A stretch of 64,000 nt of DNA. Source: Raillietiella orientalis. Lineage: Eukaryota. The stretch is taken from contig JAYWIR010000076.1 of assembly GCA_036172245.1 (NCBI GenBank), positions 310,001 to 374,000 on the forward strand. Reading direction: 5' to 3'. Both the position numbers and the translations under genes were made by a program. This document shows, in pieces, positions 2,142-45,765 of this stretch (position 1 is the stretch's first letter; every line of letters starts with the position of its first letter). The notes under the pieces are model-generated. The model was given only the letters and a program-made list of their open reading frames with translations, had not been told where the DNA came from and made no database searches.

Positions 2142-2143
2142 TA

Positions 2144-4062: not shown

Positions 4063-4141
4063 CGTCGTCAAAATGTACGACGCCAAGATGAAGCGGATGA
4101 AAGCACGGAGACGAGAGCGAAGAAAAACACGTCCGCACCCG

Positions 4142-4600
4142 ATTGAAATCTTTCGCTATCAGGTGAGCCTTTCGCACATTGGTATCCGCCAGCCAGTCGC
4201 GCTTCAGGGATTCAAGAAGCCTGGTAAGGTTGCTGTATCCCTTTTCACCGGTTGGGGCGTACACATTTGTGACGATCAGATCGATCGAGTCGGACCAGCC
4301 GAGTGTCAGCTGACCGACCCGACGGTCGTCATCGAAGCGCACGCTCTTCATGGCAGCGTCGATGGCCGGCTTCACGAAGAACGCAACCCCGCAGGTGTTG
4401 CGGATGCCGCATTGCCAGTACAGCCGACCCCTCGCGATCGTTTCGATCTCCTGGACGTCTGCCGCGGTGATCACGTGGATCTCCTGCAACAGGGCCAGGT
4501 CGAACTCCCGCAGGTGTCGGCTGTATCTCGCCTATTACCGTCTTCGCGCAGCCCGTTGACATTCCAACAGGCCGCGCGAATCCGACGGCGACTGGCGTGC
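4142..4600 (-). pseudogene. Element B ORF2 APE fragment
   Basis: WNVNGL, QEIH, CGVAF, NVYAP and KDFN motifs; truncated by insertion of A. Confidence 0.85.
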
Positions 4601-4816
4601 CCAGGTGTTACTCCTGGGAAGATGGAAGGCGGCGTCCGCCACCTTTTGGGGCGGGACGCTAGGTGGAGGAGGAGGGTGAGGTGCTGAAGGCACCTGGTCC
4701 CCCTCCTCCATAGGTAACGGCGCGTCAAGCGGGTCACCCACAGGTGGGGTCGCGCCTACCTGTTCGCCCTCCTCCAAGGGGCGGGCTGTTCAGGGTCGGC
4801 GCCTGCTGGGAGGACT

Positions 4817-6358
4817 TCACCCCCCTGTCCACCCTCCTCCATGGGGGTGGCCGGATCGACGGCTTCCGAGCGTGGGAATTCCTCCTCCGAACTTCCCACG
4901 CTGGCAACGGATTCCGTCTTCTCCTCCTCGTTGTTGGAAAGTTAGGCGCCTCCTGGGCTTCTGGGACTTGCGTGCCGACTTCCTGGGGGGTGCCTCCGAG
5001 GTGGAGGATGTACTTCCGGCCCCCAGGTCTAACTCACCTGTGGGGGCTTTCTTCGCCGGAGCCGGCCTTCGCACGTCCTTGCGCGAGGGGTTCTCACGCT
5101 CGGCCAGCGTGACCGCGAGCTCCTCCGCCGCCTGCGCGAACGCGGCGTCCGCGGCTTCGACCGCCGCTATGTCGCGCGGCTCACCCTCTGTGTGAACAGA
5201 GGGTTCGCCGTCGCGAGCCTCTGGCGCAGCGGAAACGGCAAGGGGAGGATCGACGCTCCGGGTGGCAATCTCGGGAACGACGATTCGTTCCAGTGCCACC
5301 GTGCACTCGCGCAAAGTTTTCGAGCGCGGACCGGGTTTCTTCGGCTTACCGGCCGTCTTGCCCTCTTTGCTCTCCGCGGGTGGGAGTTTTCTCGGCTTTC
5401 TGGCCTCTACAAGCTTCCATCCCTCTTCGCCTTCCACCGTTTCAGAAGGTTTATCCTCCGGCTTACGCTCCGGAGGTTGAGGTGTTGGCAGGTTGTGCTG
5501 GCCCTTTTCTACTTTAGGTCTAGAGACCTTTGAAGCGCGTTTTGCCTGCACTTTTTTCGCGGCAGGGGGAACCGGGGTGGGGTGTTTGGGACACACGCGC
5601 CGAACGTGGCCCCGCTCCCCGCACAAATGGCATTGTATATTGGGACACCTTTTACGTAGGTGTATCACGGTATCACAATGCCCGCAATACCGGGGCTTCC
5701 CTACATACCACAGATCGACGTTTTCTTGCGCCACCTGTAGTTTGTGGGGAAGCCCACAATTCTCCCGTATGGTGACCCGCGCTGCAGCCTGCCCACCAAA
5801 AAGGCTATCGAAGCCGTCGAAAATGGAGGGTTTCGGCCACAGTGCGTGCACCTCACCGTATTTTCGCAATTCCTCACCAACCGCTGACCGCGTCATGCGG
5901 CTGGTGATGCCAGTCATGTGGACAACCACGGAGCGGTCCATTGATACTGGCAGGATCTTTCGGCCGTCTACGTTCAGCGGTGCATGGATTAGGCGGTGAG
6001 CCAAGGTGACATCTTTGCAGACCACCTCGACCCGCTGCCCGCCGCTGAGGACGGAGAGGCCGTCCAGATCCTTCTCAGTGACATTCGCGTCCTTCAACGC
6101 TTTCCTGAAGGCGCGCGCTGTCCGGCCGTCGAACAAGTTGCCTACCTGGTGGACAAGCGATGGCTTGTACCCGGAGGCCTTGTATGCGGCCATCTCCGCC
6201 ATGGCTTCTGCGCTGGGCGCGGCCACCATGGCGCTCCATGTCCTCGGCGTGGCCGGGGATGATTCCGGGGCGGCTGCCCCTGCTCCAGTAGGCTGTGGGG
6301 GCGAACTAGCCTCCCCCACTCCCACCTCCATCGCGGTGTCCTCTGCCGTCGTGGCCAT
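4817..6358 (-). CDS. Element B ORF1 (Gag-like zinc-knuckle protein)
   Basis: MATTAEDT start at 6358. CGHCDTVIHLRKRC and CHLCGERGHVRRVC knuckles. Homologous to D/E ORF1. The true 3' end is probably a little further (possible frameshift). Confidence 0.8.
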   Translation of the reverse strand: MATTAEDTAMEVGVGEASSPPQPTGAGAAAPESSPATPRTWSAMVAAPSAEAMAEMAAYKASGYKPSLVHQVGNLFDGRTARAFRKALKDANVTEKDLDGLSVLSGGQRVEVVCKDVTLAHRLIHAPLNVDGRKILPVSMDRSVVVHMTGITSRMTRSAVGEELRKYGEVHALWPKPSIFDGFDSLFGGQAAARVTIRENCGLPHKLQVAQENVDLWYVGKPRYCGHCDTVIHLRKRCPNIQCHLCGERGHVRRVCPKHPTPVPPAAKKVQAKRASKVSRPKVEKGQHNLPTPQPPERKPEDKPSETVEGEEGWKLVEARKPRKLPPAESKEGKTAGKPKKPGPRSKTLRECTVALERIVVPEIATRSVDPPLAVSAAPEARDGEPSVHTEGEPRDIAAVEAADAAFAQAAEELAVTLAERENPSRKDVRRPAPAKKAPTGELDLGAGSTSSTSEAPPRKSARKSQKPRRRLTFQQRGGEDGIRCQRGKFGGGIPTLGSRRSGHPHGGGWTGG

Positions 6359-6450
6359 TGGACACCGACGATGTACACAAAACACCACACAGAAGAAAAA
6401 GCGCTTTCCTACTACTCTTTGGGGAGTGAAGGAAAAACACGTCCTGCAAC

Positions 6451-6649
6451 TGGCCGTGGAGGGTTCTGGCTGCAACGAGGCTGCCAGCTCCTCCGCGGCT
6501 CGCGCAAAGGCTACGTCATCGATGGTGGTGTAGATGACGGACGCCGCCACCGGCTCGCTCTTCTCGCTGTTGACATAGTCAACAGAGGGGTTGTTGTCGG
6601 TAGCGGCGAGTTCTTTTTCGCAGCGGTCGGGAATGCGCTCCACGACAAC
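6451..6649 (-). mobile_element. Element E (D family), middle ORF1 segment between the C and B insertions
   Basis: Encodes VVERIPDRCEKEL...DDVAFARAAEELAASLQPEPST, colinear with D ORF1 (14570-14770). Joins in frame to 19414 across TSD ACGACAAC. Confidence 0.9.
6642..6649 (+). repeat. Target-site duplication ACGACAAC of family C (other copies 17991-17998 and 19414-19421)
   Basis: The identical 8-mer precedes C1, separates C1 from C2, and follows C2. Confidence 0.92.
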
Positions 6650-6657
6650 TGTGGCAC

Positions 6658-6666
6658 GGACGTGTT
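6658..6666 (+). promoter_or_regulatory. Conserved 5' GGACGTGTT motif (DPE-like internal promoter element) in A, B, C1, C2, D and E
   Basis: The same 9-mer lies within ~15 nt of all six 5' junctions although the UTRs otherwise differ between families. The promoter role is inferred. Confidence 0.65.
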
Positions 6667-6736
6667 CTGTGTTGCTCCACGAGCGTGATTCCTTTCCGTC
6701 TTCTTGTGTGTGGTGTGCCCGAGTGCGTCCACTGGG

Positions 6737-8680
6737 ATGTCCACGGAGCCCCTGCAGCAAAACATGGATGTGGAGGCTGCTACTGGCAGTGGAGTCTCTA
6801 CTCCAGATGTCCGGTCCGCCTCTGATTCTTGTGTCTCGCCATCGGCGAGAAGCTTCGCCGCCGTCGTCAAGGCGGCGGCAGCCAGCGGAGCAACGCCCGA
6901 CGAAGCGGAGCTGCAGGCATATGCAGCCCATGGCTACAAGCCTGCGCTCTGCTATCCGGTAAGTGCTGCGATCTCCTACGGGGTCGGAGAAAATCTATGG
7001 GATGAGCTTTTGCGCGTCGGGGTCCGACAGGACGACCTCCTGGCCGTCATGCCGGTTAACGCGCTCGGACACTGGGAGGTGCAATGCAAAGAGGCATCCC
7101 TAGTCCAGCGCCTTCTCCGCACCCCGCGAAATATCCGCGGGAAGGAGGTCGTCCCGTCGGCCATGGACCAGTCGTTCGTGGTCGGATTATCCGCCGTCCA
7201 GGTGGACACGCCCGATCGCGTGCTCGTTGCTGCACTAAGTGCATTCGCCACGGTGCACGCGCTGTGGAGAGCAGAAAATCCGATCAAAAGGACTGCATCT
7301 CTTCACAGCGGACTTGCCATGACGCGTGTCACCATGGCGGATAGGAGGCAAATGCCTCCGCACTTGCAGGTGGGCGATGCGATCGTCCACCTTAAATTTG
7401 CCGGTCAGTGACCGGCTTGCGACATTTGCGGTGCCGAGGACCACCGTCCGTGGACGTGCCCTTCACGCAACTGCCGCTATTGTAAACAGCTCGGCCACTC
7501 CATCAAAGAGTGCGCCAAGCTAAAGAGAAAGCGGCAGGCGAAAAGCCGCCAACAATCGACCCCGTCCGCGCCGAAAAGATTTCCCGTTGTGCCACGGGAG
7601 AAATCGGGCGCGAAGGGCGGGGCATCTTCGAGTAGAGGTCCCGCGAAAAAGGGCGCGGTTGCTTCAGGAAAGCCACCATCCCAGACAACCGCGCAGACGG
7701 GAAAGATGCCACGTCGCTCTGGGGGCAAATCGCCCCCTTCGAAACAGCCTAAGAGTGCGGGCACGCACTCAATCAAGGCTGCTGAACCGTCCGCGTCCGC
7801 TTGCGCGTCCAGCGGAGCACACGGGAAACCGTGCGCGGGTACCCTCGGAGCTGCCTCTGAACGGCAGTTTCCTCCTACGGCGGTGGAGATCACTTCATCC
7901 ACGCCGAAGGCACGGGCAGCGAAGGCTGCAATAGCGCCTCGCGGGACGACGGCAATGACCGCCGTTTCGCCCGCATCGGCTAAGGAGCAGGTGCAGTGCG
8001 TAACGGGGACGGAGCCGTCTCCCGCCGCGAGCGCGAAACGTGATCCGGCATCTCCGGCCAAACAATTGAGGGAGGCGTCGGCCTCCCAGGAGGGCGTCCC
8101 CGACGCGGGTTGGACTCGAGTCTCCAGGACGCCCACAAAGGGGAAGAAGAAGGTTGACCCTTCAATATTCCCCATCCTTAAGGTGGGTGGGAGGCAAAAG
8201 AGAAGCACGCCGAAGAAGGTGCGTACCCAGGTACGCACTACGGCTGCGTGCTCTGTCTCCGTCGCTTCGCGCGAGAGGGCGGCTGCGGAAGCCAAAGCTC
8301 CGGAAGCTGCGTTGGCGACTGCGACGACACCCGCGCGGGCAGGGCAAGCCTCCACCTGCCGAAACAAAAAGAGACTGGCAAAACGCCAGTCTCGCGCCAG
8401 GCACTCGGACTCCGAGGTGGAGTCTGAGTGCAAACAAATGGAGCGCGCATCCCGGGGTAAGTCGGTAGCGCGCCGGGCTTAGGTGCGAAAGCACGAGACT
8501 GTTGCCGGAGGCGGTTCCGGCTCCTGCACGGAGACCGAGGCGATGATCCTCGGCTCCCAGGACTCAGCTGGGCGCGATGTGGCGGCGAACGGGAGCGATT
8601 CCGCTTCCCAATCCCCTCTCCTACCAGCTGACTTCTCGCCGGACGGGGCGAGGAGCACGCCGTCATGTCCGCAGCAGTGA
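6737..8680 (+). pseudogene. Element C1 ORF1, two in-frame stops (7409-7411, 8480-8482)
   Basis: ORFs 6704..7411, 7589..8482 and 8483..8680 are in one frame. Knuckles CDICGAEDHRPWTC and CRYCKQLGHSIKEC follow the first stop. Confidence 0.85.
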
Positions 8681-10394
8681 TGCGTGGACTCGCGTCCGCT
8701 CGTCGCGTCAGCGTGGCCTGTTGGAATGTCAACGGGCTACGTGATGCTGACAAAAGGCGGACGGTAGCCAACGCTTTGCGCGCGTTCGATCTGGTGCTGC
8801 TGCAGGAGATACATAGCATCTCCGTACGGCAGGCATCGGATCTGGAAGAGCGCGCGGGCAGGACGCTACACTGGCGGCAAGGCTCCGCGCACACGTGCGG
8901 AGTCGCGTTCCTCGTCCGAGGCAGGGTGGCGGAGGCGGTGCGGAACGTTTGTTTCGACGAGGAAGGTCGTGTGGGCCAACTTGTCCTCAAGTGGTCCGAA
9001 TCGATCGACCTGGTCGTTACGAACATCTACGCGCCGAGCGGCGGCCGGCATTACGCCCAGCGACTTGCATTCCTGGGTGGCCTGCGCAGCCGCTGGCTCG
9101 CTGACTCCGGCCCTAACGTGGCGCACCTCCTTGCAGGAGACTTCAACGTCCACCTGCTAACAGAGGAGAGATGCCGCTTGAGGGAGAAGCAACTGGTGAG
9201 CGAGGTATGCGCGTACGTGCGCGTGCAAAACTTGCTTGCTGGTGAGCCCGGGATGGAGAGATCGCCAGACCATGCGTTCCTCGATGAACACCTGCTCTCA
9301 CGAGTAGGTCGGAGAGGGCGCCTGCTGTCCGCGATTTCGGATCATCCTAGACTGGAGTTCGAGTTCCTCCCGCCTGGCAAAGGGCCTCCGATGAATGTCT
9401 GGAGGTTGCCGGCCGACTGGCTTAGCAATTCGGAGGCGGCGGAGCATCTCCGCCAACACCTCCGGGGCTTCGCCATCTGTGAACTCGAGGACTGGGACGA
9501 TCTGAAAAGATCTGTCCGCGAGTTCTGCTGCCGGTTGTTCTTGCACCTGCTTCCCCGCGGCTTCGGGGAGGGTGTCGCGAACAGCAGATCCTATCTGCAG
9601 GCGCGTACCTTTTCACGATGCCCGGACGTCCGGCGTCTGGCGGAGTATAAGGCCAGGGCCGAGCGCCAGGTTTAGCAGTCTGGAGCGGCTTGTCTGCTCG
9701 ATGACGCTGGCCAGGAATGCTCGGCTGCAGCCGAAGTACACCGCGTAGTCAAGCGCTACTGCTCCTCTTTGTACGCGGAGGAGCCCACGGAACGCAGTCT
9801 CTCCGAGCTGCTTCTTCCGACGGGCAACCCTGCTATCGACGAGGAGGAACGCGCCAGATTGGGTTGGCCCTTCACGGCGGAAGAAGTATCCTCTGCCATA
9901 GCGGGCCTGAAGAGGCGTAAGGCGCCTGGGGAGGATGGCCTGCCCGCGGAGTTTTTTCAGTGCTTCGCGGCGGAGCTCGTCCCCCTGGTGCTAAGCCTTT
10001 CCTCGCTGATGCGTGAGACGGGAGATGTTCCCGCTTCTTTCCGCTCAGCAAAGGTGCGGCTCCTGCCGAAAGGCGGTCATTTGCGCCACCTCAGCAACTG
10101 GCGTCCGATCACATTGGTGAATTCGGACGTCAAGTTGTTCTCCAGGCTATGGGTCGCGCGCCTGGGAAGAATCGCAGAGTCCTTGGTAAGTCCGGAGCAG
10201 ACGTATGCTGTTCCGGGTCGGTCCATGGACGCGAATCTCTTCTTCGCGCGAACATGGTTTGAGTGTCAGCAGCGCGTGGCGCAGCAGAGCCAGGCAGCCG
10301 AAATCGCCGCTGCCAAAGGAAAGCAGCGGTGTTCAAGGCACGATGGAACGCCGGGAGCCTTAGCGGTCGCCGTCGATCTCTGCAAAGCGTTCGA
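8665..10394 (+). pseudogene. Element C1 ORF2, 5' half (APE + RT up to KAFD)
   Basis: WNVNGL, LQEIH, GDFN, SDH, KAPGEDGLPAEF, WRPITLVNSDVKLF, AVDLCKAFD; stop at 9673-9675. Confidence 0.92.
10383..10394 (+). repeat. 12-bp TSD of element D: CAAAGCGTTCGA (partner CAAGGCGTTCGA at 15925-15936)
   Basis: Removing D and one TSD restores VDLCKAFDSVNQDLLLELLERLGLP in C1 ORF2. Confidence 0.92.
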
Positions 10395-10613
10395 TTTTCA
10401 CCCGGATTTCGCCGGGGCGTTAATTGTAAAATAAACATTTACAAAGACGTGCGGTGGCTGGACCATTGCTCCAGCCACGCACGAAGAAACACAGAGCCTG
10501 CCGGGTCACCAGTTCGCAGACCGGTACGGTCCACCACGGCAGCAGGGGGAAGGGGGAAAAAACAAAAAACAAAACAAAAAAGAAAAGAAAAGTTGGGAGG
10601 GTAAGGGAAGGGA

Positions 10614-13600
10614 TCACAGTTGCTGGTGGGGCCGTTGCATCCTTTGCAGGATGCCAACAAGCTCCTTCTGTATTCCTGGATCCAGGTGGGGCCATCGGGA
10701 CGCCCTCCTCAGGAACTGGGAGGCTGGCTGGATGGCACCCTGGTCGCGTTGTCCTCCCGTAGCCTTGCTCCAAGCGGTGACGATCTTGCGTAGGCAGCAC
10801 AAAGCTGCTAACGAGGCCGCTGGCCGAAGGGCGTCGGCAACGAAGAGGGCTTTCAGTGCGTCCCTGGGGTTGCCGCAAGGGATTCCGATGGCCGCGGCAA
10901 AGCGACACCAAAGGGGCCGAAGGGCAACACAATCCACTAGCAGGTGGGGGAGGGACTGCCGTTCCCCACACCTGACGCAATTGGGGTCCACAGATCCCCA
11001 GGTCCAGTGGTGTCGGCGGGCGTTGCAGGGGAGTCCCCAGTGCTGCAACAGGAGAGCCGACTCCTGCCATTTTAAGGGGAGGGCGGAAGTGTTCATGAGC
11101 ACCAAGGGCCACTTCAGATGTTCAATGGGAACATCGAGCAGCGCGCCCCAGCGCAGAAGTTTATTGGGAGGCGTAGTCGGGGTCGCAGCGTCTGTTAACT
11201 GGCCCGTCTTCCACTCTCCTATCTTCTTCTCCTTTCCGGAGATTGTTACTGTAACCACCCACTTCGCCGCAACATCGCTGTCCAGATCTTCCATCAGGGA
11301 GGGCAGCGCAGCAGCGAGGGGAGTTCTTCCTGCCCACGCTCTCTTCTTTGGATCCTCCAGGATCTCGCGGAGCGTGCAACTTCTGTAACCCCCAAACAGG
11401 AACCCTCGTTCCTGTTGGGAGCGTTGCATGCCGAACTGTCCCCACGTTCGAACGGTTTCCTGCAACCAGGCACTACCGTTAAACGGGCGACAGGTGAGCA
11501 ATCCTGGGTTTTTCCGATACAGCGCAGCCACCCTCCGTAGCTGGAGTCCGCATCGGTTGAAGCGGCGACGGAGTCCAAGAAACGACGTCAGTCCCGTCTT
11601 GCCGGTGGCTTCTTGGAGAATGAGACGTGCAAGGACGCACCAACAGGTGCACCACAACTCTGGAACGAGTGCCGACAAGCGGAACTGGAGCTGAAGCTCC
11701 AGCCGCTATAGCGTCAGAGGCCCAGACCACTATCCCGACGAGGAGCGCACAAGTCCTTTAAGCGGACTCGGGCCCTCCCGTTGCCCCAAAGGCCGATACG
11801 TAGGAGGTCCTTTGTCCGCTTTTTAATCCTCTCTGTGGGGGGGCAAACAAAAAGCAGGGGGCAGAGGAGAGGAGCCGCGAACGTGTTCCAAACCGCGGCC
11901 CGTTCAGGCAGGAAAAACCTGCCGCCTCGGAACGGGCCGATTGCCGTCTCTACTTTTTGAAGGCAGCCGGATCACGCTTCCGCAGGGGAGTAGTCCCCCA
12001 ACGGAACACCAAGGTACTTGAAGTACCTCACCGTGGGGATCCCCAAACGGACCCAGTCCTGCTGCCCTGCCCACGCCGCACCAGCTGAAATCACGGACGA
12101 CTTCGCCCTGTTCACCGTAAGTCCGGTTCCCCGATGCAGCAGGTCGAAGAACTCCTCGACCGCCGCAGCCGGGGTGGACATAGGGAGCAGCAGCAGAAGG
12201 TCGTCCGCGTATGCTGAAACGGCCGGCGTACCGGCACAGTCGTGCGGCAGGTGCGCCAGAGTTCCCCTGTGCGCTCTCAGTACCAACTCAAAGTAGGTAC
12301 TGAAGAGCAAGGGGCTCAGGCTGTCTCCTTGCCGGATTCCACGCCGCACCGGCACGCCGTGCACGGTCTGCCCGCTGAAAGTAACATTGATGAGCGTGTC
12401 GCGCCAGCAGGAGCGCAGATAGGCCACTAATGAAGCTGGGAAGCCCAAGCGTTCCAGAAGCTCCAGAAGGAGATTCTGGTCGACGCAATCGAATGCTTTC
12501 CGCAAGTCGATTGCGACCGCAAGGGCTCTCTCCCCCACCCGACCATCCAACCCCCTACCTGCGCACGAACCGGAATTCCGGCTGCGCACCAAACTCCTTT
12601 CATGTTGGAGCTCTAGCCAGGTGGAAGCGTGGAACAGGTTCGCCTCCATGCTTCGCCCGGGAACAGGATATGTCTGTTCCGGGCTGATGAAGATGTTGGC
12701 AACCCGTCCCAGACGCTCTGCCCACATCTTGGCTATCAACCTGGCGTCCGCATTCACTATTGTGATGGGACGCCAGTTGTTCATGCTCCTCAGATCTCCT
12801 CCCTTACGGAGGAGCCGCAACTTTGCCGAAAGAAACGAGGCGGGAACGTCACCTGTTTTGCGTATCAGCAAGGTGAGTTGCTGTACCATGGAGGTAAGCT
12901 CAGCCGCGAAAGTTTGATAAAACTCCGCGGGCAGGTTGTCCTCCCCTGGAGCCTTTCGCCTCTTGAGCTTTCCGATGGCCGATAGGATCTCGTCCATCGT
13001 GAAAGGCTCGTCGAGGGTCTTTCTCTGCTCCTCCCCGATCGCTGGAGCGCCTTCCGGAAGCAGGAGTCGTGAGACGTTCCTCTTTGGAGGTGCCCTGGCA
13101 TACACGGAGGAGTAGTAACTCCGCAGCAGGCCGCGGATTTGGACAGGTGCCGAGTGCTCCTGGCCCTGATCGTCCAGTAAGCTGGCCGATCCGGACTACC
13201 AGGCTTGCCTCTCGGCTCCCGCTTTGTATTCCGCCAGCCTGCGGATGTCGGGGGTCCTGGCGTAACGACATGCCTGCAGGTAGGCTCGTTCGTTACGGAC
13301 CCCGGTCCCAAAACCCGTAGGTAGGCGGTGCAGAGGGAACTGATCGCAGAACTCCTGCACTGACCCCTTGAAGCGGTCCCAATCCTGGAGTGTCCGCAGC
13401 CTGAAGCTCCGTATGAACGTGCGGAGATGTTTTGCCGCGTCCGGGAGCTTTAGCCAGTCCCCTGGAAGACGCCACGCTGACGAGGGGGGGCCCTTGTCGT
13501 GCGGATGGATCTCGAGGACTAGCGGGCGATGGTGGGACAGCTCGCACGGTAACTTGCCGCGCCTGCCCACGCGAGGGCACAGGTGCTCGTCAAGAAACAC

Positions 13601-14194
13601 GTGGTCAATGCTGTCTTCCATCCCCGGTGCACTGGCCAACAGATTACAGGTGTGCACCGCCATGCACACCTAGTTGACCAGGTCACGCTCGGGATTCTGC
13701 TCATCTGGTTTCAGGCGAACGTTGAAATCGCCTGCCACCAGATGGGCATTCCGCACGCCTGCTTCGGTCAGCCAGTCTCGCCGGAGGGCAAAGAAAAACT
13801 GTTTCCTCGCCCTCCTGTTCATCAGGTCCTTGCCGCTCGGTGCGTACACGTTCGTGACGATCAGATCGATCGAGTCGGACCACCTGAGAGTCAGCTGGCC
13901 GACACGACCGTGATCATCGAACCGCACGCCCCGAGCCGCGGCCTCGACGGCTGGCCGAAGCAGGTAGGCGACACCGCAACTTTTCGCTCTCCCACACCTG
14001 TACCATAGCCGCCCTCCGGAGATCCGTTCGATCTCTTACGCTTGTTCTGCAGAGATCACGTGGATCTCCTGCAGCAGCGCAAGGTCGTAGGACTCCAGAA
14101 GAGCGGCCATGTCTCGTCTCCTGCCGGCGTCTGTCATGCCGTTCACGTTCCAAACGGCGATGCGCAGACGACGGCGGGAGGAAATTCCCGGCAT
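10614..14194 (-). pseudogene. Element D ORF2 (APE-RT-C-terminal zinc motif), several nonsense codons and a frameshift
   Basis: ORF pieces 13670..13927, 13196..13669, 11972..13105 (IDLRKAFD, GIRQGDSLSPLLF, YADD, FKYLG) and 10614..11678 (CVRCGERQSLPHLLVDC). Confidence 0.92.
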
Positions 14195-14208
14195 TACTGC
14201 TGGGAAGA

Positions 14209-15828
14209 TTAAGGTGTGGGGGAGCCCTCCTCTTGCGAGGCGGGCGGGATGTCCATGGGGGTTTCGGCCTTCTCAGGCACCTGAGGCACCTGTCCGGCCC
14301 TCACCCCCTCCATCCCCTCGGTGTACGTGCGTGGGAGTCTCTCGGGCGACGGGTCCCGAGAGTTTCCCACGCTCATGGCACCCTCGCTTGCGGAAGCCAT
14401 CTCTTCCCCTTCGACGGGGGAGACGAGCTTCCTTGGCTTTGTGGAATTACGTCCAGCCTTCTTGCGCGGTGCCGTGGAAACGGAGGCTGCGCTTCCGGCC
14501 TCCACCTCGGGGTCGGAAGTGGGGGATTCCTGAGGGGAGGCCGAACGCCTGACGGCCTTCTTGCCAGCCTTGGAGGGTTCTGTCTGCAACGAGGCTGCCA
14601 GCTCCTCCGGGGCTCGCGCGAAGGCTACGTCATCGATGGTGGTGTCGATGACGGACGCCGCCGCCGGCTCGCTCCCCTCGCTGCTGACAGTGTCAACAGA
14701 GGGGAGGTCGTCGGTAGCGGTGAGTTCTTTCCGGCAGCGTTCGGCAACATCGAGAACGCGTTCGACAACGACGCTGCACTCTTTAATAATCGCGCTACCC
14801 TGCTCTTTCTTCTTCTGTTGGTAGGCGATTTTCTTTTCCATCATCCTCTCCTTCTTTGATTTTTTGGCCGTTGCCACTTGCCACTTAGTCTCCTGACCGG
14901 CTCCCTCAACTTTTTCGGCGTTGGTCGCCGAGGTCTCGGAAGCGGCCTGGGTCTTGGGCGCGGGTGGCACAGCCTTCGCGGCAGCTTTCGCCGCCAGCCT
15001 TTTCTGCAGAAGCCGGGCGCGTTTTTTAAGGTTTCTCTTGGAAACCACCCGCACTGCTGCTTTTGGGCACACCTCCCTCGTGTGGCCCATTGTGCCGCAT
15101 ACTTGGCACTGCACATTGGGACACCTCTTTTTGAGGTGGCCCGACGTATTGCAGAAACCACAGTATTTCGGCTTCCCCACATACCAAAGGTCGACGGTTT
15201 CGCCTTCGACCACCAGTTTGTGGAGAAGAGTGCAGCCCTCCCGAACGGTCACGCGCGCAGCAGTGAGGCCGTGTTGCAGCCCCGTGTAGTCCTCGAAAGG
15301 ACTTACTTTCGTCCACTGCGCGTGGACCGTTCCGAACTGTTCCAAAACGGCGCGAACCTGTTCTTTGCGCATCCGCGCGGTGACGCCTAACAGGTGGACC
15401 ACCATGCTGCGGTCCGCCGTAGTGGGGAGGAGCCTGCGCGTCCCCATCACAGCGGGGGTTTTAAGCAGTCGTTGGGCCAGCTCTGCATGTTTGCAGATGA
15501 CCTCAACGTACTGACCCCCGCTGCGGATGGTCATAGCGCTGAGCTCCTCCTCTTTCACATCAAGAGCGCGCATGCCCTTCGAGAAGGCGCGCGCGCTCTC
15601 TAAAGAATAGAAATTGCCTACCTTGTAGAACAATGAGGGGTTGTACCCCACCTCTACATAGGATAACAATTCCGCCGCGGCTGCAGGCGATGGCGCCGAC
15701 ACAACGGCGCTCCACGCCCGCGCTGCAGCGGGGACCGATTCTATGGGGGCGGATGCCCCCACCTCCATCGCCTCTGAGGGCGACGTTACCGCTGCCCCCT
15801 GGCCATCCCTGCGGGTCGCGTCAGGCAT
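14209..15828 (-). CDS. Element D ORF1, intact, 539 aa Gag-like zinc-knuckle protein
   Basis: MPDATRRD start at 15828; CGFCNTSGHLKKRC and CQVCGTMGHTREVC; open to 14209. Confidence 0.88.
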   Translation of the reverse strand: MPDATRRDGQGAAVTSPSEAMEVGASAPIESVPAAARAWSAVVSAPSPAAAAELLSYVEVGYNPSLFYKVGNFYSLESARAFSKGMRALDVKEEELSAMTIRSGGQYVEVICKHAELAQRLLKTPAVMGTRRLLPTTADRSMVVHLLGVTARMRKEQVRAVLEQFGTVHAQWTKVSPFEDYTGLQHGLTAARVTVREGCTLLHKLVVEGETVDLWYVGKPKYCGFCNTSGHLKKRCPNVQCQVCGTMGHTREVCPKAAVRVVSKRNLKKRARLLQKRLAAKAAAKAVPPAPKTQAASETSATNAEKVEGAGQETKWQVATAKKSKKERMMEKKIAYQQKKKEQGSAIIKECSVVVERVLDVAERCRKELTATDDLPSVDTVSSEGSEPAAASVIDTTIDDVAFARAPEELAASLQTEPSKAGKKAVRRSASPQESPTSDPEVEAGSAASVSTAPRKKAGRNSTKPRKLVSPVEGEEMASASEGAMSVGNSRDPSPERLPRTYTEGMEGVRAGQVPQVPEKAETPMDIPPASQEEGSPTP

Positions 15829-15924
15829 CGCTGCCTGATCGACCACCGAACCACACGACGCTTGCACTGGGGAAGACTTCCTGTCACGAGGAGCACCGAG
15901 AAAACACGTCCACCCTGGAGCGCA

Positions 15925-17785
15925 CAAGGCGTTCGACAGCGTAAACCAGGACCTCCTTCTGGAGCTTCTGGAACGCCTAGGCCTCCCGACGCACCTCATC
16001 GCCTACTTGCGCTCCTGCTGGCGCCACGCGTTATGCTGTATCTCTTTCAGCGGGCGTCACGTGTACGGTGTTCCCATACGGCGGGGTATCAGGCAGGGAG
16101 ACAGCTTAAGCCCCCTGCTCTTCAGCATCTTCTTTGAGTTGGTGCTGAGGGCGTACAGGCTGACGCTGGCAAACCTGTCGAGCTCCTGCCCGGGAACACC
16201 GGCCGTGGCTGCCTATGCTGACGACCTTCTCCTGCTGCTGCCCATGTCCACCCCGGCATCCAGGCTCGAGGACTTCTTCGAGCTCATTCGTCGGGGAGCG
16301 GGCCTGAGCGTGAACAGGACGAAATCAACCGTTGTACCGGTTGGCTTTACGTGGGAGGGGCAGTCCGACTGGATCCGCCTGGGGATCCCCACGGGCAGGT
16401 GCTTGAAGTACCTCGGCGTTCCCTTGGGCGCCTTCTGTCCAGCAAAAGCGTGGTCGGATTGCCTTCACAAGACCGAGACTGCTCTGGGCCCGTTCGAAGG
16501 CGGCAGGTTTCTCCTGTCGGAACGGGCCTTCGTGTGGAACATTTTCGTTACCCCCCTCCTCCGTCCCCTCTTTTTTGTTTGTCCACCTCCCTACTCGGCT
16601 AAGCGCCGGGCGCAACGCCTGTTGCGTATCGCCCTGTGGGGACCGGCGAGGTCCAGGATACGCCTGAAGGACTTGGCGGCTCCTCGGCGGGATGCAGGAT
16701 TGGGCATCCTGACGCTGGAGCGGATCGGACTGCTAGTGCAGTTCCTCATGCTGGCACTTTGTGCCCAGCTCTATACTACTCCCTGGTGTGCTCCAGCGCG
16801 GCTGCTGCTGCGGCGCTGCACGGATGGCGACGGACTGCGTTCGTTGCATTTGCGCACGGAGCGCGTTTTAAAAGGATCCGGCTTCCCTCTGAAGCAGCTT
16901 GCTTCGGTTCTGGAAAAGCATTGGTGGATCTCCTGCCGGCCGACGAACTTCAACGCCTGGAGGCAGGAAGCCTTATCGTCCTGGGCAGCGCAACAGGATG
17001 TGTCCCGTTTGGAACTCCGTTGCGTGAAACTTTCCCCATACTGTCCAGTGGGGGAGGTGCTGGAAGACCAGGACCAGTGGACACGCCTAGCCGCTACGCC
17101 ACTCGCCGGAGCACTGTGTGCACTGATGGTGCGAGATGACAGTGACCTGCCGGCGAGGTGGGAGATCACTTGCGAAATCGCATGCGAAACCCGACTGCTG
17201 GGCGGCTGGCGGACTTGCGAAGTGGCAGACGCTTCCACACCCCGCATTCTTGCAAAGGGGCTTCTCCGGTGGAGTGAGCTCCTCGGGGTGCCCACCGATG
17301 AACTTGTGGTCCCTTCTGCGTGTTTGGACGCGACTCTCTTCCCCCTTCGGTGGAAGCAGGACGCTTTTCTGCTGGTGCATTGGGGTTTGTACTGCAACCA
17401 GCGGGCGCACCTGATTTCCGGGGGAGTTGCGTCCCCGAACTGTGCCAAATTGGGAGCGGTGGAAACGCTTCCGCATTTGCTGTTTGAGTGCGGTGCCCTC
17501 CAGGAGCTGTGGCAGCGGCTGTCTTTAGCGCTCCTGCACCCTGGACACACCGCACTGGATTGGATGCGCCGCTTCTACACGCGTGGCGGACTTTCTCTTG
17601 GAGCGGTCGTCGCAATCATCTGCTGCGTCCGCGCCATTGTCAGGGCCCGCCACGTATTGCAGATGCGAGCAGTCCCAACATCGGTCCCCGACACCGCAGC
17701 CTGCAACCTGCAAATGGCTGCCGGCCGGCCACACCTGGGAGCAGAAGTGAGGACGGAGATCGGCGGCATTCATTGCCGGTTCTGA
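15925..17785 (+). pseudogene. Element C1 ORF2, 3' half (RT from KAFD to C-terminus), open frame
   Basis: KAFDSVNQ, GIRQGDSLSPLLF, YADD, LKYLG, ETLPHLLFEC, ending EIGGIHCRF*. Confidence 0.92.
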
Positions 17786-17960
17786 GAATAGGAACGGTTA
17801 GACAGTATACCCCTGTCCCCGCCCTCCCACCCAGTTTATTTATTTATTGTCCCACCCCCTCCCGTTCCGAACTCTCAGTGTGCCCGGACTGCGTTCCGGG
17901 AAATCTACTCCCCATTTTCTCTTCCCCTTGCCTGGGAACACAGTTCTCAGTTGATATTTT

Positions 17961-17990
17961 AATAAACGTCCCGGCGCAACCGGGTAATAA
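17961..17990 (+). terminator. Conserved 3'-terminal AATAAA + CCCGG-loop-CCGGG hairpin + short A-rich tail (also in D, C2, F, H)
   Basis: C1 AATAAACGT-CCCGG-CGCAA-CCGGG-TAATAA; F AATAAACGC-CCCGGG-CGTA-CCCGGG-TGTAA; D (minus) AATTAACGC-CCCGG-CGAAAT-CCGGG-TGAAAA. Confidence 0.8.
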
Positions 17991-17998
17991 ACGACAAC

Positions 17999-19413
17999 TG
18001 CCGCACGGACGTGTTATGTGTTGCTCCTCAAGCGTGATTCCTTTCGGTCTTTTTGTGTGTAGTGTGCCCGAATGCGTCCACTGGGATGTCCACGGAGCCC
18101 CTGCAGCAAAAGATGGATGTGGAGGCTGCTACTGGCAGTGGGGACTCTTCTCCAGATGTCCGGTCCGCCTCTGATTCTTGTGTCTCGCCACCGGCGAGAT
18201 TCGCCGCCGTCGTCAAGGCGGCGGCAGCCAACGGAGCACCGCCCGACGAAGCGGAGCTGCAGGCATATGCAGCCCATGGCTACAAGCCTGCGCTCTGCTA
18301 TCCGGTAAGTGCTGCGATCTCCTACGGGGTCGGAGAAAATCTATGGGATGAGCTTTTGCGCGTCGGGGTCCGACAGGACGACCTCCTGGCCGTCATGCCG
18401 GTTAACGCGCTCGGACACTGGGAGGTGCACTGCAAGGAGGCATCCCTAGTCCAGCGCCTTCTCCGAACCCCGCTAAATATCTGGAAGACCAGGACCAGTG
18501 GACACGCCTAGCCGCTACGCCACTCGCCGAAGCAATGTGTGCACTGATGGTGCGAGATGACAGTGACCTGCCGGCGAGGTGGGAGTTCACCTGCGAAATT
18601 GCAGGCGAAACCCGACTGCTGGGCGGCTGGCGGACTTGCGAAGTGGCAGACGCTGCCACACCTCGCATTCTTGCAAAGGGGCTTCTCCGGTGGAGTGAGC
18701 TCCTCGGGGTGCCCACCGATGAACTTGTGGTCCCTTCTGCGTGTTTGGACACGACTCTCTTCCCCCTTCGGTGGAAGCAGGACGCTTTTCTGCTGGTGCA
18801 TTGGGGTTTGTACTGCAACCAGCGGGCGCACCTGATTTCCGGGGAAGTTGCTTCCCCCTAACTGTGCCCAATGCGGAGCGTTGAAATCGCTTCCGCATTT
18901 GCTGTTTGAGTGCGGTGCCTTCCAGGATCTGTGGCGGCGGATGTCTTCAGCGCTCCTGCACCCCGGACACACCGCACTCGATTGGATGCGCCGCTTCTAC
19001 ACGCGTGGCGGTCTTTCTCTTGGAGCGGTCGTCGCAATCATCTGCTGCGTCCGCGCCATTGTCAGGGCCCGCCACGTATTGCAGATGCGAGCAGTCCCAA
19101 CATCGGTCCCCGACACCGCAGCCTGCAACCTGCAAATGGCGGCCGGCCGGCCACACTTGGGAGCAGAAGTGAGGACGGAGATCGGCGGCATTCACCGCCG
19201 TTTCTGAGAACAGGAACGGTTAGACTGTATACCCCTATCCCCGCCCTCCCACCCAATTCATTTATTTATTGTCCCACCCCCTCCCGTTCCGAACTCTCAG
19301 TGTGCCCGGCCTGCGTTCCGGGAAATCTACTCCCCATTTTCTCTTCCCCTTGCCTGGGAACACAGTTTCCAGTTGATATTATGAACAAACGTCCCAACGC
19401 AACCGGGTAATAA
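17999..19413 (+). mobile_element. Element C2, internally deleted 1.4-kb copy of family C, tandem to C1
   Basis: 17999-18480 matches C1 6650-~7134; 18481-19413 matches C1 ~17060-17990. Both termini and TSDs are kept. Confidence 0.93.
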
Positions 19414-20611
19414 ACGACAACGCTGCATTCCTTAATTTGCTCGCTTGCCTGCTGTTTTTTCTGGCGGTACGCGAGCTTTTTCTCTAATCTTCTTTCTTTT
19501 TTTGTTTTTTTGGCTGTTGCCACCTACCACCCAGGCTCTTGGCTAGTTCTCTCGACTTGTTCGGCGTTGTTCGCCTGGGTCTCGGGTGAGGCCTCAGCTT
19601 TAAGCGCGGGTGGCACAGACTTCGCGGCAGCTTTCGCCGCCAGCCTTTTCTGCAGAAGCCGGGCGCGTTTTTTAAGGTTTCTCTTGGGAACCACCCGCAC
19701 TGCTGCTTTAGGGCACACCTCCCTCGTGTGTCCCATTGTGCCGCATACTTGGCACTGCACATTGGGACACCTCTTTTTGAGGTGGCCCGACGTATTGCAG
19801 AAGCCACAGTATTTCGGCTTCCCCACATACCAGAGATCGACGGTTTCGCCTTCGACCACCAGTTTCTGGGAAAGAGTGCAGCCCTCCAGAACGGTCACGC
19901 GCGCAGCCGTGAGGCCGTGCTGCAGCCCTGTGTAGTCCTTGAAAGGACTAACTTTCGTCCACTGCGCGTGGACTGTTCCGAACTGTTCCAGAGCGGAGCG
20001 AACCTGTTCTTTGCGCATTCGCGCGGTTACGCCTAACAGGTGGACCACCATGCTGCGGTCCGCCGTAGTGGGGAGAAGCCTGCGCGTCCCCATCACAACG
20101 GGGGTTTTAAGCAGTCGTTGGGCCAGCTCTGCATGTTTGCAGATGACCTCAACGTACTGACCCCCGCTGCGGATGGTCATAGCGCTGAGCTCCTCCTCTT
20201 TCACATCAAGAGCGCGCATGCCCTTCGAAAAGGCGCGCGAGCTCACTAAAGAATACAGATTGCCTACCTTGTAGAACAATGAGGGGTTGTACCCCTCCTC
20301 TACATAGGCCGACAACTCCGCCACGGCTGCAGGCGATGGCGCCGACACAACGGCGCTCCACGCCCGCGCTGCACCGGGGACCGATTCTGAGGGGGCGGAT
20401 GCCTCCACCTCCATCGCCTCTGGGGGCGACGTTGCCGCCCCCCCTGGCTCTCCATCGCCTCTGGGGGCGCCGTTGCCCCTGCCCCCTGACCATCCCTGGT
20501 GGTCGCGTCAGGCATCGCTGCCTGATCGACCACCCAACCACATGACGCAAGCACTGGGAGAGACTTCCTGGCACAAGGAGCACCGAGAAAACACGTCCGC
20601 CCTGGAGCAGG
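19414..20611 (-). mobile_element. Element E (D family), 5' end and ORF1 N-terminal part
   Basis: Roughly 95% identical by eye to D over the knuckle region. ATG at 20515; short tandem duplication ~20409-20485; GGACGTGTT at 20590-20598 (minus). Confidence 0.93.
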
Positions 20612-22711
20612 CAAGGCGTTCGACTGTGTTCACCAGGAGCATCTGTTGGAGCTCCTAAGTCGCATGGGCTTCTCACCCTCCTTGATCACTTACCTGCGTT
20701 CTTGCTGGCGTAATGCGATTATCTGCATCTTTTTCAGCAGTCAGAAGGTGTATGGCGTGCCGGTGCGGCGGGGCATCAGCCAGGGCGATAGCCTGAGTCC
20801 CCTGCTCTTAAGTACCTACTTTGAGTTGGTGCTGAGAGCGTACAGGGTGACTTTGGCCCCTTTGCCGAGCTCGTGCCCCGGCACGCCCGCTGTAGCAGCC
20901 TATGCCGACGACCTTCTGCTCCTCTTACCTATGTCCACCCCGGCGAAGGCGTTCGGAGACTTCTTCGATCTGCTCAGCCGTGGGACAGGACTGCAGATCA
21001 ACAGGGCGAAGTCGTCGGTGCTGCCAGTAGGTGCGGCGTGGGCAGGGCACTGGGTCCGTCTGGGGATCCTCACGGCGAGGTACCTCAAGTACTCGGTGTG
21101 CCGTTGGGGGACTACTTTCCTGCGGAAGCGTGGTCCAGGTGCCTGCAAAAAGTCTAGACGGCGATCGGCCCGTTCCTGGAAGGCAATTTTCACTTGCCGG
21201 GACGGGCCGCGGTTTGGAACGCCTTTGCGGCACCCATCCTCCGCCCCTTGCTTTTTGTTTGCCCCGCCTTAGGAGTTGTTAAAAAGAGGACGAAGGTTCT
21301 CCTCCTCATCGCCCTTTGGGGCAAGGGGAGGCCCCGAGTCCCTCTGAAGGACTTGTGCGCTCCGCGTCGGGACGGCGGTCTTGGACTCCTGACGCTGGAG
21401 TGCGTGGAAATCCAGCTGCGATGGCGAACCCTCGCCATCGCAGCGAAGATGTGGAGCACCCCTTGGTGCGTTCCGGCCCGCCTCCTTGCCAGGCGTGAGT
21501 CCCGATGCGAAGGACTCGCGTCGTTTCTTCTGTGCCCTGGCCGGAAGATTCGAAGATGCGGCCTTATGCTCGGACGAATAGCAACCCTGGCGAAGGTGAC
21601 CGGTTGGGTGGTTTGCTGCCCCGCCAACTCCTCTGCCTGGCTGGAGGAGACTGCAGGCACCTGGGCCAAGCAGAACCGGAGAAGAGAAGAGAATATAAAC
21701 TGCCTGCGAATCGGCCCATACGCCAACCGCACTCTGCGGGAAATACTGGAATTTCCCCGGAGTCTCAGGTGGGCGTTGTCGACTCCCCTTGCTACGGCGA
21801 TGCCCTACCTCCTGAGGGCGCTTCAGGATCGCCAGAAGCCGAGGTGGCAAGTCACTTGCCAGATCGCAGGCAGGGAGAAGATGTTAAGTGGCTGGACCAC
21901 AGGAGAACTGGCGGACGCCACGACCCCGAGCGTCCAGCCGCGTGGATTGATGAGATGGGGCGAGCTGCTCGCTATCCCTACCGATGTGCTGAATTGGCCC
22001 CCGGTACTCAAGGAATCCAGGATCCTGCCCCTTAAGTGGCAAGAGTCGGCGTTGCTACTGCTTCACTGGGGTTTACCCTGCAACGCACGCCGCTTCCACT
22101 GGACAAGGGGATCTGTGGATCCTGAATGTGTCAGGTGCGGAGAGCGGGAATCGCTCTCCCACCTTATTGTGGACTGTGCTGCCCTCCGACCCCTCTGGGA
22201 ACGGTTCGGGACAACCCTCGGGCTCCCTACGGGCAGCACCCCCAGAGACGTTCTTCGGCCCCTCTTCGTGAAGGACGCACTGCAGCCAGCCGCAGCCATC
22301 GCAGCCTTGTGCTGTGTCCGTGGCATCGTGGCGGCATGGAGCGACGCCAACTACGGAGGAGTGGGTCCACACGCGAGGGATGTCATCCCATATGCCCAAC
22401 GGTTCTTGCGGAGAGCTGCCGGGTGGCCCCAACTGGGGAATATGCGGATGGACCTCGAAGGTTTCCTTCAACGGATGGGCCCTCCTCACAGCGAGTAGTG
22501 ATCCCTTCCCTGCCCTTCAACTTCTTTTTGTTTGTTTATTTTTTATTTTTCTCTTTGTTTTACCGCCATCCCTTTTCTTTGATATGGAACGCTACGCCGG
22601 GCTGCGTCCCGGCGTCCCGGCAGGTCCCGTGCGTATGGCCGTTAGCGGGGTCTTGTACTGCGTATGCAGGGTATTTTTAAAATAAACGCCCCGGGCGTAC
22701 CCGGGTGTAAA
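20612..22711 (+). mobile_element. L1/Tx1-clade element F, 3' half (RT from KAFD, C-terminus, 3' UTR); probably B family
   Basis: Starts KAFDCVHQEHLLELL, has YADD and CVRCGERESLSHLIVDC, stop at 22498, AATAAA + hairpin 22681-22705. Family assignment is inferred from the target site shared with B. Confidence 0.9.
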
Positions 22712-22873
22712 CCTCCAAGGCTGGCAAAAAGGCAGTTAGGCGTCCGGCCTCCACCGAGGAGTCGGTAACTTCCGACCTCAAGGCGCAGGCCGGAAACGAA
22801 GTTTCCACCTACGCGGCACGCCGCCGGAAGGCTGGAAGGAAGTCCAGCAAACCCCGGAAAGCCCTTCTCCCAG
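22712..22873 (+). mobile_element. Element G, D-family-like ORF1 fragment (host of F)
   Basis: Encodes SKAGKKAVRRPASTEESVTSD...RRKAGRKSSKPRK, matching D ORF1 SKAGKKAVRRSASPQESPTSD...RKKAGRNSTKPRK. Confidence 0.85.
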
Positions 22874-23148
22874 CCGGCGATGGATGCCGGAGAGATCGCC
22901 GGCATCCATCGCCGGTTTTCAAAGGAAACAACGGACTCACCAGAGACCCCTGTCCCCTGCGTACCATATTTTTATTTTTATTTTTTATAGTAGTGTTTTT
23001 GTGGTCCTTTCCCTGCCCTTCCGGACTTTCGCCATACCCACCTGCGTGTCGGGGATTCCACCCCTTTGGTATCTTGTTTTCCCCTTTGTCCAGGAACTCT
23101 GTTCCCGGATAGTTTTTTAATAAACGCCTCGACGCACCCGGGTGATAA
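22874..23148 (+). mobile_element. Element H, 3' terminus of a C/A-subclade element with a 17-bp 5' inversion
   Basis: EIAGIHRRF resembles the C terminus of C (EIGGIHCRF), followed by a T-rich UTR, AATAAA and a degenerate hairpin. Confidence 0.75.
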
Positions 23149-23296
23149 ACAACCGCCCCCCCGCGATCGTTTCGATCTCCTGGGCGTCTTTTGCGGTGAT
23201 CACGTGGATATCCTGCAAAAGCACCAGGTCGAAATCTCGCAAGGTGGCGGCTGTGTCCCGTTTGTTTCGGTCGTCGCGCATCCCGTTGACGTTCCA
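23149..23296 (-). mobile_element. Element I, B-like APE fragment
   Basis: WNVNGMRDDRNKRDTAATLRDFDLVLLQDIHVITAKDAQEIETIAGGRL, colinear with B 4420-4570. Confidence 0.85.
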
Positions 23297-24399
23297 TAAA
23301 ATGGAAAACCAGCAAAATAACCATTTTACTGACCTCAAAATATTAACCGTTCACTACGGTCTCATGAAAATACACAAATATTTTGCGTTGCACTGAATTT
23401 TGCATGAATTTTTTGTCACCACGTTCTACCTGATTTTACAAATACATATTTCAAATATAATGGGGTCACACGTTATTCCTTTAAAAACTAAGGTTAAAAA
23501 ATTGCCATGTGCCAAAAAAATGAAATGAACTCTAGAATCTGAAGTAAAAAAACTCTGCAACAAATTGTTTGAATCCCTTTATCTATGCCTTCATGAAGGA
23601 CTATAAACTCTGAAGCACCTTGCAGAACACCTCATAAGCTTTGGTATTTCCAGGCAGATGTCATAATAAAACAATGATGTTCAGACACATGGTAAACTTA
23701 TTGCACAAGCTCGGAGCAAAGGATTACCTGTTACTCGCATCTTATCCGGAAAGGGTTAGCATTCCCAGAATCCACAGCATGAAACTCCTAGACTGAAACA
23801 TACCATCCTGGGAGCACAGTCGACTGTGGATGGGATCAGATGAGAGAGATGCTAATCAATAGCACCAAATCAAGTAATAACCTTGGCAACCAAACCTCAA
23901 ACAGGACATCTTTATCCTTTTAGACATACAAGAGTACCATACTGTAGTTCCTTCGTCAAATCTCTCAAATAATGGGATCTCTCCAAGAACATCCTCACAA
24001 ATTCACATTCCTCATCCGCCAGAGAGCAAGCATGCCACTTGCTACAAGTCAACAAACTGCACCAACTCCCACTTCTGCAAGAACTACTCCTCATCCCACA
24101 AGCAGACCATCTCCTTACATCACACTCCAATCTACAGGTGATGATTCTCATCTCAAAATTTCCTCCTCTATAACTGAACAGCAAGATTCCATTTCAAACT
24201 AGTTTCAAGGGAAAATTGCGCGATTTGCAATCACAACCAAAAGATGTACAAACATGCCAGTTAGCCATGGATACACTGAACGATGTCAACCATACCATTT
24301 ACACATACTTTCGAACCCTGGGTGCAAGCCCAACCTTCGAAGGACCTACCCAGGAGATTACAACCCCCAAACACATCCACCCCTTATATAAGCTCTTTC

Positions 24400-45162: not shown

Positions 45163-45765
45163 TCATTTTCTGTTCTTCTTTTCCGGTTACTACGGAGCGT
45201 CAGGAAAATTCCCTTACCCTGAATACGATTTAGGAAGTTTTTTGTTCTCGGTCCCCACCTCCCACACCCATTTGGAACCTACAGCTTTCCTGGCATGCGA
45301 ACCGTTGGTGTTTTTGAGTTTTGCTTTTTGGTAGGCTTCAGCGGGAGGAAGCAACTGTTCCCTGCTTGTTCATGGAAATAAACGTCCCCTCGTGACAGGG
45401 AAAAAACTTCATGCCAAACATTGTCGTGAATTCCTTCTCGAACGGGAGAGGTTGGGGTGCAGGAGAGAACATTCGGACGTGTAGTGCGCGCGAGCTCAAC
45501 AGCATTGCATTGTCCCCGCGCGCAGCATCCCTCCATTAGCCTCCTCCTCTGCAGAAAGAGTCGATAGGCTTTCTTCTTGGTTCTGGAAGCGGCATTTGAA
45601 CGGACGAAGGCAGTGAGCGGTTCCCCGCGTCTCGCCTCTCCATTGCTTTTCCTCGGGTCGCACACCCCGTGCCTGCTGTCGTCAGGCAGCCGTCGACGCA
45701 CGCTGAGCGCCTCCGGCACGGGACATGGGTCTGACAGAGGACCTGCGTATGCTTGGTTTTCCGCG

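Follow-up and report, generated by a model that had tools for sequence, protein, structure and literature searches.

A stretch of 64,000 nucleotides from Raillietiella orientalis (assembly GCA_036172245.1, contig JAYWIR010000076.1, positions 310,001 to 374,000 of the forward strand; hereafter the window, in whose coordinates all positions are given) was analyzed for the organization of the retrotransposons at its left end. Positions 1-23300 contain only retrotransposons of the long interspersed nuclear element (LINE) type and have a G+C content of about 60%, compared with 41-48% in the next 18 kb. The nesting order of the elements, designated A to H (table 1), was reconstructed from a self-comparison of the window and from the junction sequences. 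H holds G, G holds F, F holds D', and D' holds B, C, and C2; at the inner level, B holds A and C holds D. Element D' is present as two pieces, E and D2, that are neighbors in D coordinates and are bracketed by the triplicated 7-bp sequence CGACAAC (at 6643, 17992, and 19415), with C2 in tandem with C. D is nested at the KAFD codons of C, and the 5' end of D2 lies at the KAFD codons of F, in which D' is antisense. The present analysis concerns the insertion sites of B and F, which likely reflect recurrent sense targeting of the 10-mer CCTCCAAGGC in the first open reading frame (ORF1) of D-like elements.

The 5' end of B (6452, minus strand) adjoins CCTCCACGGC in the ORF1 of D', and the 3' tail of F (ending at 22711) adjoins CCTCCAAGGC in G, within a D-like ORF1. 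In a three-way alignment of D, the E/B junction and the F/G junction, E tracks D up to ...GAACCCTCCACGGC and then changes to CAGTTGCAGGACGTG, and the F tail (...CCCGGGTGTAAA) is directly followed by CCTCCAAGGCTGGCAAAAAGGC, which tracks D. Exact or near matches to CCTCCAAGGC are located at 14567-14576 (minus strand, in D), 6453-6462 (minus strand, in E, as CCTCCACGGC), and 22712-22721 (plus strand, in G). The 10-mer stands in the wider context AAC-CCTCCAAGGC-TGG (longer stretch, GCAGACAGAACCCTCCAAGGCTGGCAAG), and the 18-mer GAACCCTCCAAGGCTGGC was found only in D and, with two mismatches, at the F/G junction (0.10 chance matches expected in the window). D is uninterrupted at the site, where the codons GAA CCC TCC AAG GCT encode E-P-S-K-A (E-P-S-T-A in E), and the B and F inserts are both in sense relative to the host ORF1, at the P-S-K/T-A codons. 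Two marks of target-specific behavior are therefore found in the window: recurrent insertion at the same site in the same orientation (B 5' and F 3' junctions) and an empty target in another host copy (D).

An earlier note on this DNA had B starting just after the site in E and the host G resuming at 22712, and these coordinates are right to within 1 bp. Its description of both elements as sense insertions at EPS[K/T]A codons is borne out by the alignment and the junctions, as is the empty site in D. The same note placed a second hotspot about 190 bp away, used in the opposite orientation by another family. In D, the distance between the site and this hotspot, CGACAAC, is 187 bp (186 bases between them; start-to-start offset 196 bp), and the hotspot is used antisense by C and C2. 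The hotspot region in the D ORF1 (hotspot 1, 14758-14769) contains GCGTTCGA, an octamer that is also the core of the KAFD target (10387, 15929, and 20616). The CGACAAC that C and C2 have duplicated overlaps this octamer. Cleavage by the C and D families falls within or next to the octamer, but differs in orientation and register. On balance, we favor the explanation that B and F are time-separated insertions of apurinic/apyrimidinic endonuclease (APE)-type LINEs of the L1 superfamily at one site, in sense, in the C-terminal tail of a D-like ORF1.

Table 1. Elements, junctions, and target copies of the LINE nest (RT, reverse transcriptase; TSD, target site duplication; UTR, untranslated region)
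Feature	Position	Strand	Description
A	1..4141	-	LINE: 5'UTR, ORF1, ORF2 with APE and RT; runs past the window start
A 5' junction	4141/4142	-	In sense, directly after the K-D-F-N codons of B ORF2; ...GATTTCAAT/CGGGTGCGGACGTG
B, visible part	4142..6452	-	5'UTR 6452-6359; ORF1 6358-4817, 514 codons, open
B ORF2 N-terminus	about 4660-4142	-	Two stops; cut by A
Upstream target copy CCTCCACGGC	6453..6462	-	Adjoins the B 5' junction
E	6453..6649	-	D' ORF1 piece between both hotspots; 88.7% identity to D
E end	6643-6649	-	CGACAAC
C	6650..17991	+	Full-length LINE, antisense in D' at hotspot 1; tail GGGTAATAAA ends at 17991
D	10396..15923	-	Full-length D-family LINE, antisense in the KAFD codons of C; TSD about 14 bp
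Empty target CCTCCAAGGC in D ORF1	14567..14576	-	Codons P-S-K-A
Empty hotspot 1 (CGACAAC) in D ORF1	14763..14769	+	Second hotspot, used in D' by C and C2
C2	17999..19414	+	Internally deleted C: first 483 bp and last 932 bp; about 95% identity to C
D2	19415..20611	-	5' part of D' (5'UTR and N-terminal part of ORF1); 90.8% identity to D
F, visible part	20612..22711	+	ORF2 from KAFD to the stop at 22498; degenerate, with stops
F 3'UTR	22499-22711	+	Ends ...CCCGGGTGTAAA
Downstream target copy CCTCCAAGGC	22712..22721	+	Adjoins the F 3' junction
G	22712..23149	+	D-like ORF1 tail, then directly C-like 3'UTR, no ORF2; tail GGGTGATAAA ends at 23149
H	23150..23300	-	5'-truncated B-like ORF2 start, 82% identity to B; outermost shell
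GGACGTGTTNT copies	4124-4134, 6434-6444, 6658-6668, 15901-15911, 18007-18017, 20588-20598		5' ends of A, B, C, D, C2, and D'

The B 5' junction and the F 3' junction are genuine element ends. Six copies of the motif GGACGTGTTNT are present in the 64 kb, against 0.09 expected, and all lie 7-13 nt inside an inferred 5' end. The copy in B reads GGACGTGTTTT and lies 8 nt from the junction, the 5' end of the element reading CAGTTGCA-GGACGTGTT; since the motif is confined to element 5' ends, B begins with a normal full-length 5' end. The motif is common to all four families and may serve them as an internal promoter or as a signal by which the 5' end is recognized. At the other end, a terminal block (AAACG-CCCGG..CCGGG-T..AAA) is found at each of the five 3' ends that the window contains (C, C2, D, F, and G), and because F carries this block its end was taken as a true 3' end. 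In C, D, and F, a small hairpin can be drawn from this block. Folding of the 35-nt terminal pieces was no better than that of shuffled sequences (z -1.6 to +0.8), and the block was therefore regarded as a conserved sequence block and not as a structure.

A reading frame of 725 codons (4817-6994, minus strand) is open from the D' ORF1 through the 94-nt 5'UTR of B into the B ORF1, which places B in frame with its host. In-frame entry was considered as a rule and dropped, since the ORF1 of A is out of frame with the ORF2 of B; the case of B is possibly a one-in-three accident.

The two elements have no homologous overlap in the window: B is represented by its 5'UTR, ORF1, and the first ~125 ORF2 codons, and F by ORF2 from KAFD to the tail. 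Their relationship was therefore approached through their positions relative to the other elements. A DNA tree of the RT region separates (A,C) from (D,F) with 100/100 support, and a DNA tree of the APE region separates (A,C) from (D,(B,H)) with 100/99 support, in agreement with the pairwise identities. A protein tree of the RT region was dropped in favor of the DNA trees because F is frameshifted (three stops) and forms a long branch. The B ORF1 shows 43% identity to the D ORF1 over its full length and 34% to that of A, and the 3'UTR of F resembles that of D. B/H and F thus each take the position of a sister of D, which is consistent with a single family, for which it is a necessary and not a sufficient condition. 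As far as these sequence comparisons go, B, F, and H probably form one lineage that is the sister of the D family, and it is plausible that B and F belong to one family with a 10-bp TSD. At the homologous place, the B ORF1 reads ...ERENPSRK..., so the B lineage lacks its own target.

The alternative that survives best is that B and F stem from two different lineages, each of which targets the same 10-mer in sense, the specificity having been inherited from a D-side ancestor or acquired twice. B and F are linked solely by site, orientation, and tree side, with no shared segment in the window, and excerpts of Kojima (2015; PMC4494074) describe two hot regions of Mariner-N4_AMi in crocodilians, each of them shared by several Tx1 families. 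Against this, every other site in the window is served by one recognizable family (C and C2 at CGACAAC, D and D' at KAFD), and B/H and F fit one tree position. We regard two lineages as unlikely, while giving this explanation more weight than any of the others considered below.

A second explanation denies that F lies inside G. G would then be a 5'-truncated copy cut at CCTCC by chance beside the F tail, both elements would lie in H, and only B would be a real hit. 5' truncation is common in LINEs and is seen in H itself, tandem re-insertion at a used site occurs in this nest (C and C2), and G comprises only 438 bp in the window. However, the C/C2 tandem has a copy of the TSD between its members, whereas no copy of the H flank (CAACCGCC) is found between the F tail and G, and the truncation point would have to match the B site within 10 bp, for which the probability is about 1e-3. 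A truncated G is therefore considered quite improbable. If F does lie inside G, the G ORF1 to the left of F would be expected to end ...GAACCCTCCAAGGC.

A third explanation concerns the other junction and treats E/B as a template-switch chimera, in which the RT jumped from the 5' end of the B RNA to a D-family RNA and B was never inserted in D'. The sense-to-sense junction exactly at the B 5' terminus is what a template jump predicts. However, D' runs on until it reaches the KAFD codons of F, where its 5' end is of the normal D type and the junction is the same as that of D in C. This is expected if D' was inserted in the ordinary way and was hit by B afterwards, and not if a chimera was placed by the B machinery. 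A template jump also leaves the F 3' junction at the same 10-mer unexplained, and we consider a chimera very improbable.

F entered G first, D' entered F next, and B entered D' last. Because B lies in D', D' in F, and F in G, the two hits at the 10-mer are successive events. Since G shows only 73% identity to D in the ORF1 tail, the host of F and the host of B belong to different D-like lineages that have both kept the 10-mer. As a rough estimate for a host of 5.5 kb, a 3' junction would lie 7-16 bp upstream of a given, like-oriented 5' junction by chance with a probability of about 9e-4. Overall, six out of eight visible insertion events pair at three sites (KAFD, CGACAAC, and the 10-mer, two events each), a count that is affected if C and C2 are a single event followed by a later duplication; among the window's five distinct sites, three have received two insertions each. 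Insertion at a fixed site is the norm within the nest. A coincidence of two unrelated junctions, to which the small number of events (n=2, with one end visible in each) lends some room, is with these figures the least credible of the explanations.

Repeated sense insertion of B and F at the 10-mer is thus the explanation that we carry forward, and its most likely mechanism would be recognition of the site sequence by an AP-type endonuclease that the element itself encodes. If it works like other site-specific LINEs of the APE type, the bottom strand would be nicked at the left edge of the 10-mer (AAC/CCTCC), reverse transcription would be primed there from the hairpin-plus-AAA 3' end of the element, and a top-strand nick 10 bp further on, after ...AAGGC, would duplicate the 10-mer. 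A TSD of 10 bp is suggested by two half-junctions that derive from different events, and its length could reach about 13 bp should the AA that precedes CCTCC at the F/G junction be host sequence and not part of the tail. The cleavage positions, and endonuclease specificity as the cause, are inferences; the families each have a different sequence at their own site, which argues for family-specific endonuclease recognition over a shared structural hotspot.

Several observations weigh against this explanation. No copy in the window shows both ends, so that neither the TSD nor the kinship of B with F is proven, and all support comes from copies in this window. G pairs a D-like ORF1 tail with a C-like 3'UTR; such a mosaic implies that segments can reshuffle between lineages and weakens a family assignment based on trees. 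The B-like element H, whose 3' junction lies out of view, adjoins AT-rich host DNA with its truncated 5' end, and the lineage may accordingly not be strictly confined to the target. Finally, the primer end ...GGAGG-3' and the tail ...GUAAA-3' are not complementary, so that priming would have to proceed without annealing or with a read-through transcript extending into the downstream target; priming by read-through transcripts is discussed for R2 and R1 in excerpts of PMC4494074.

Other features of the nest and its surroundings were recorded alongside. The K-D-F-N codons at the B/A junction (4142-4150, minus strand) correspond to GDFN in C and D. G, which lacks ORF2, may be a non-autonomous, ORF1-only derivative; it contains an inverted repeat at 22874-22915 (20-nt arms, 95% complementary, 2-nt spacer) that sits where its likeness to D stops. 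A second GC-rich stretch of the window (42000-46800, 55-58% GC) shows no similarity to the LINE nest in the self-comparison, and a Pfam search of five ORFs of the host flank, including the sole ORF tested in that stretch (45857-46768), identified no families.

The proteins of the nest were compared with domain, structure, and sequence collections. Pfam identified an N-terminal AP-type endonuclease in ORF2 (PF03372; E 1.8e-14 in C and 4.5e-06 in A) and an RT (PF00078; E 1.4e-20 in A and 3.8e-15 in C). Weak matches to zf-CCHC, the zinc knuckle of ORF1 (16.5-20.5 bits), and to zf-RVT, the zinc-binding region looked for at the C-terminus of ORF2 (19.6 bits), were all below the Pfam cut-offs, and CX2CX4HX4C strings are visible in the translations. 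Among solved structures, the nearest chains to the endonuclease are L1 endonucleases (human L1, E 6e-08), the best match to the RT is human L1 ORF2p (E 8.5e-40), and no R1 or TRAS endonuclease was matched at E<=0.01. A protein search with the A ORF2 returned 29 proteins without family names, the best with 62% identity and the rest with 32% or less, which indicates that the LINE proteins of this organism are absent from the protein collection searched. In the ESM Atlas cluster nearest to the A ORF2, the commonest phylum is Chlorophyta, which is taken as a lead only. A protein search across the E/B junction (P0001, residues 110-420) gave no match at E<=0.001 among 8000 scored candidates.

Comparisons with nucleotide collections were made in addition. 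The sequencing run X1 contains 0.13 of the sampled words. Logan contigs of X1 were compared at >=80% likeness with positions 4000-17050, a stretch chosen to avoid the 95% C/C2 repeat and ending short of the F/G junction; 497 contigs matched, 27 of them at >=99%. Among the entries listed (6 of 322 loose ends and 15 of 22 joints), none is located at 6452 or at 14567-14576, a result that is uninformative in both directions. One X1 contig joins 10257 to 15923, skipping 5665 bases, and represents a related C-like copy in which the KAFD site is empty. A metagenome scan with a 17-mer across the F/G junction returned 54 loci, none of them window-like by blastn, which were taken as chance matches. A scan of viral contigs with the C-terminus of the F ORF2 found no relative. 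A scan of prokaryote contigs with a 21-mer upstream of the site gave one match, in a Rhizobiales contig, which is probably a chance match.

If the B/F lineage homes to the 10-mer, a sense site in ORF1 joins KAFD, GDFN, and CGACAAC as an insertion site of one LINE in another in this genome. Such homing would provide a mechanistic account of how GC-rich islands made up solely of LINEs, of which the Zepp and ZeppL clusters of green algae are examples, assemble themselves and spare host genes. It would also make available AP endonucleases that are closely related but differ in the short DNA sequences they recognize, which would be useful for the study of specificity evolution. A wider scenario would make the B/H/F lineage an obligate parasite of its sister family, with an endonuclease tuned to a 10-bp ORF1-tail codon block that its own ORF1 has lost. 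Entering in sense, and in the case of B in frame, the lineage could then be transcribed and even translated from its host LINE. Together with the KAFD, GDFN, and CGACAAC specialists, it would form a LINE guild whose members home into the genes of one another and so build a LINE-only and possibly centromeric island; taken jointly, the claims of this wider scenario are speculative and doubtful.

Among known systems, the insertion pattern has a close precedent in the Tx1 clade. Excerpts of Kojima (2015; PMC4494074) describe target-specific Tx1-clade LINEs in other transposons (Tx1 in Tx1D and Tx1-Mar families in Mariner-N4_AMi) and in long terminal repeat (LTR) retrotransposons (Tx1-8_Crp and Tx1-4_AMi). 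In the same source, Mariner-N4_AMi has two hot regions that are used in opposite versus same direction by different LINE families, and tandem insertions sandwich the TSD. The elements of the nest are likewise LINEs with APE and RT, probably of the broad L1/Tx1 kind, at fixed places inside another mobile element. The likeness in insertion pattern extends to the use of two sites, with C and C2 lying antisense at CGACAAC and B and F lying in sense at CCTCCAAGGC. In contrast to the Tx1 cases described in these excerpts, the target here is the coding sequence of the ORF1 tail of a sister LINE and not a DNA transposon or an LTR element; the tails of the nest, which end in the hairpin block plus AAA, are a further difference.

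The L1-type Zepp elements of Coccomyxa/Chlorella and ZeppL of Chlamydomonas are similar in forming GC-rich nested LINE clusters (61% GC for Zepp versus 53% for its genome, from excerpts of PMC3446292), a likeness of cluster features. In the Zepp clusters, as far as the excerpted accounts describe them, one family piles into itself, mostly as 5'-truncated 3' ends, whereas here several families each have their own codon-level site in another family and six full-length 5' ends are found in 23 kb. The mechanism proposed above would, by analogy, be the same as cutting by R1-clade endonucleases, for which excerpts of PMC1919474 describe the sequence-specific AP-type endonuclease of R1Bm cutting both strands of a defined target; R1Bm targets 28S ribosomal DNA, whereas for the endonuclease and RT of the nest the closest solved structure is human L1 ORF2p. 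The LINE targets described in the portions of the open-access literature drawn on here are DNA transposons, LTR elements, RNA genes, and microsatellites, together with the insertion of Zepp into Zepp, and no description of codon-level cross-targeting between LINE families was found in that literature. The ORF1 site adds to these systems a further variant among target-specific LINEs, beside KAFD, GDFN, and CGACAAC.

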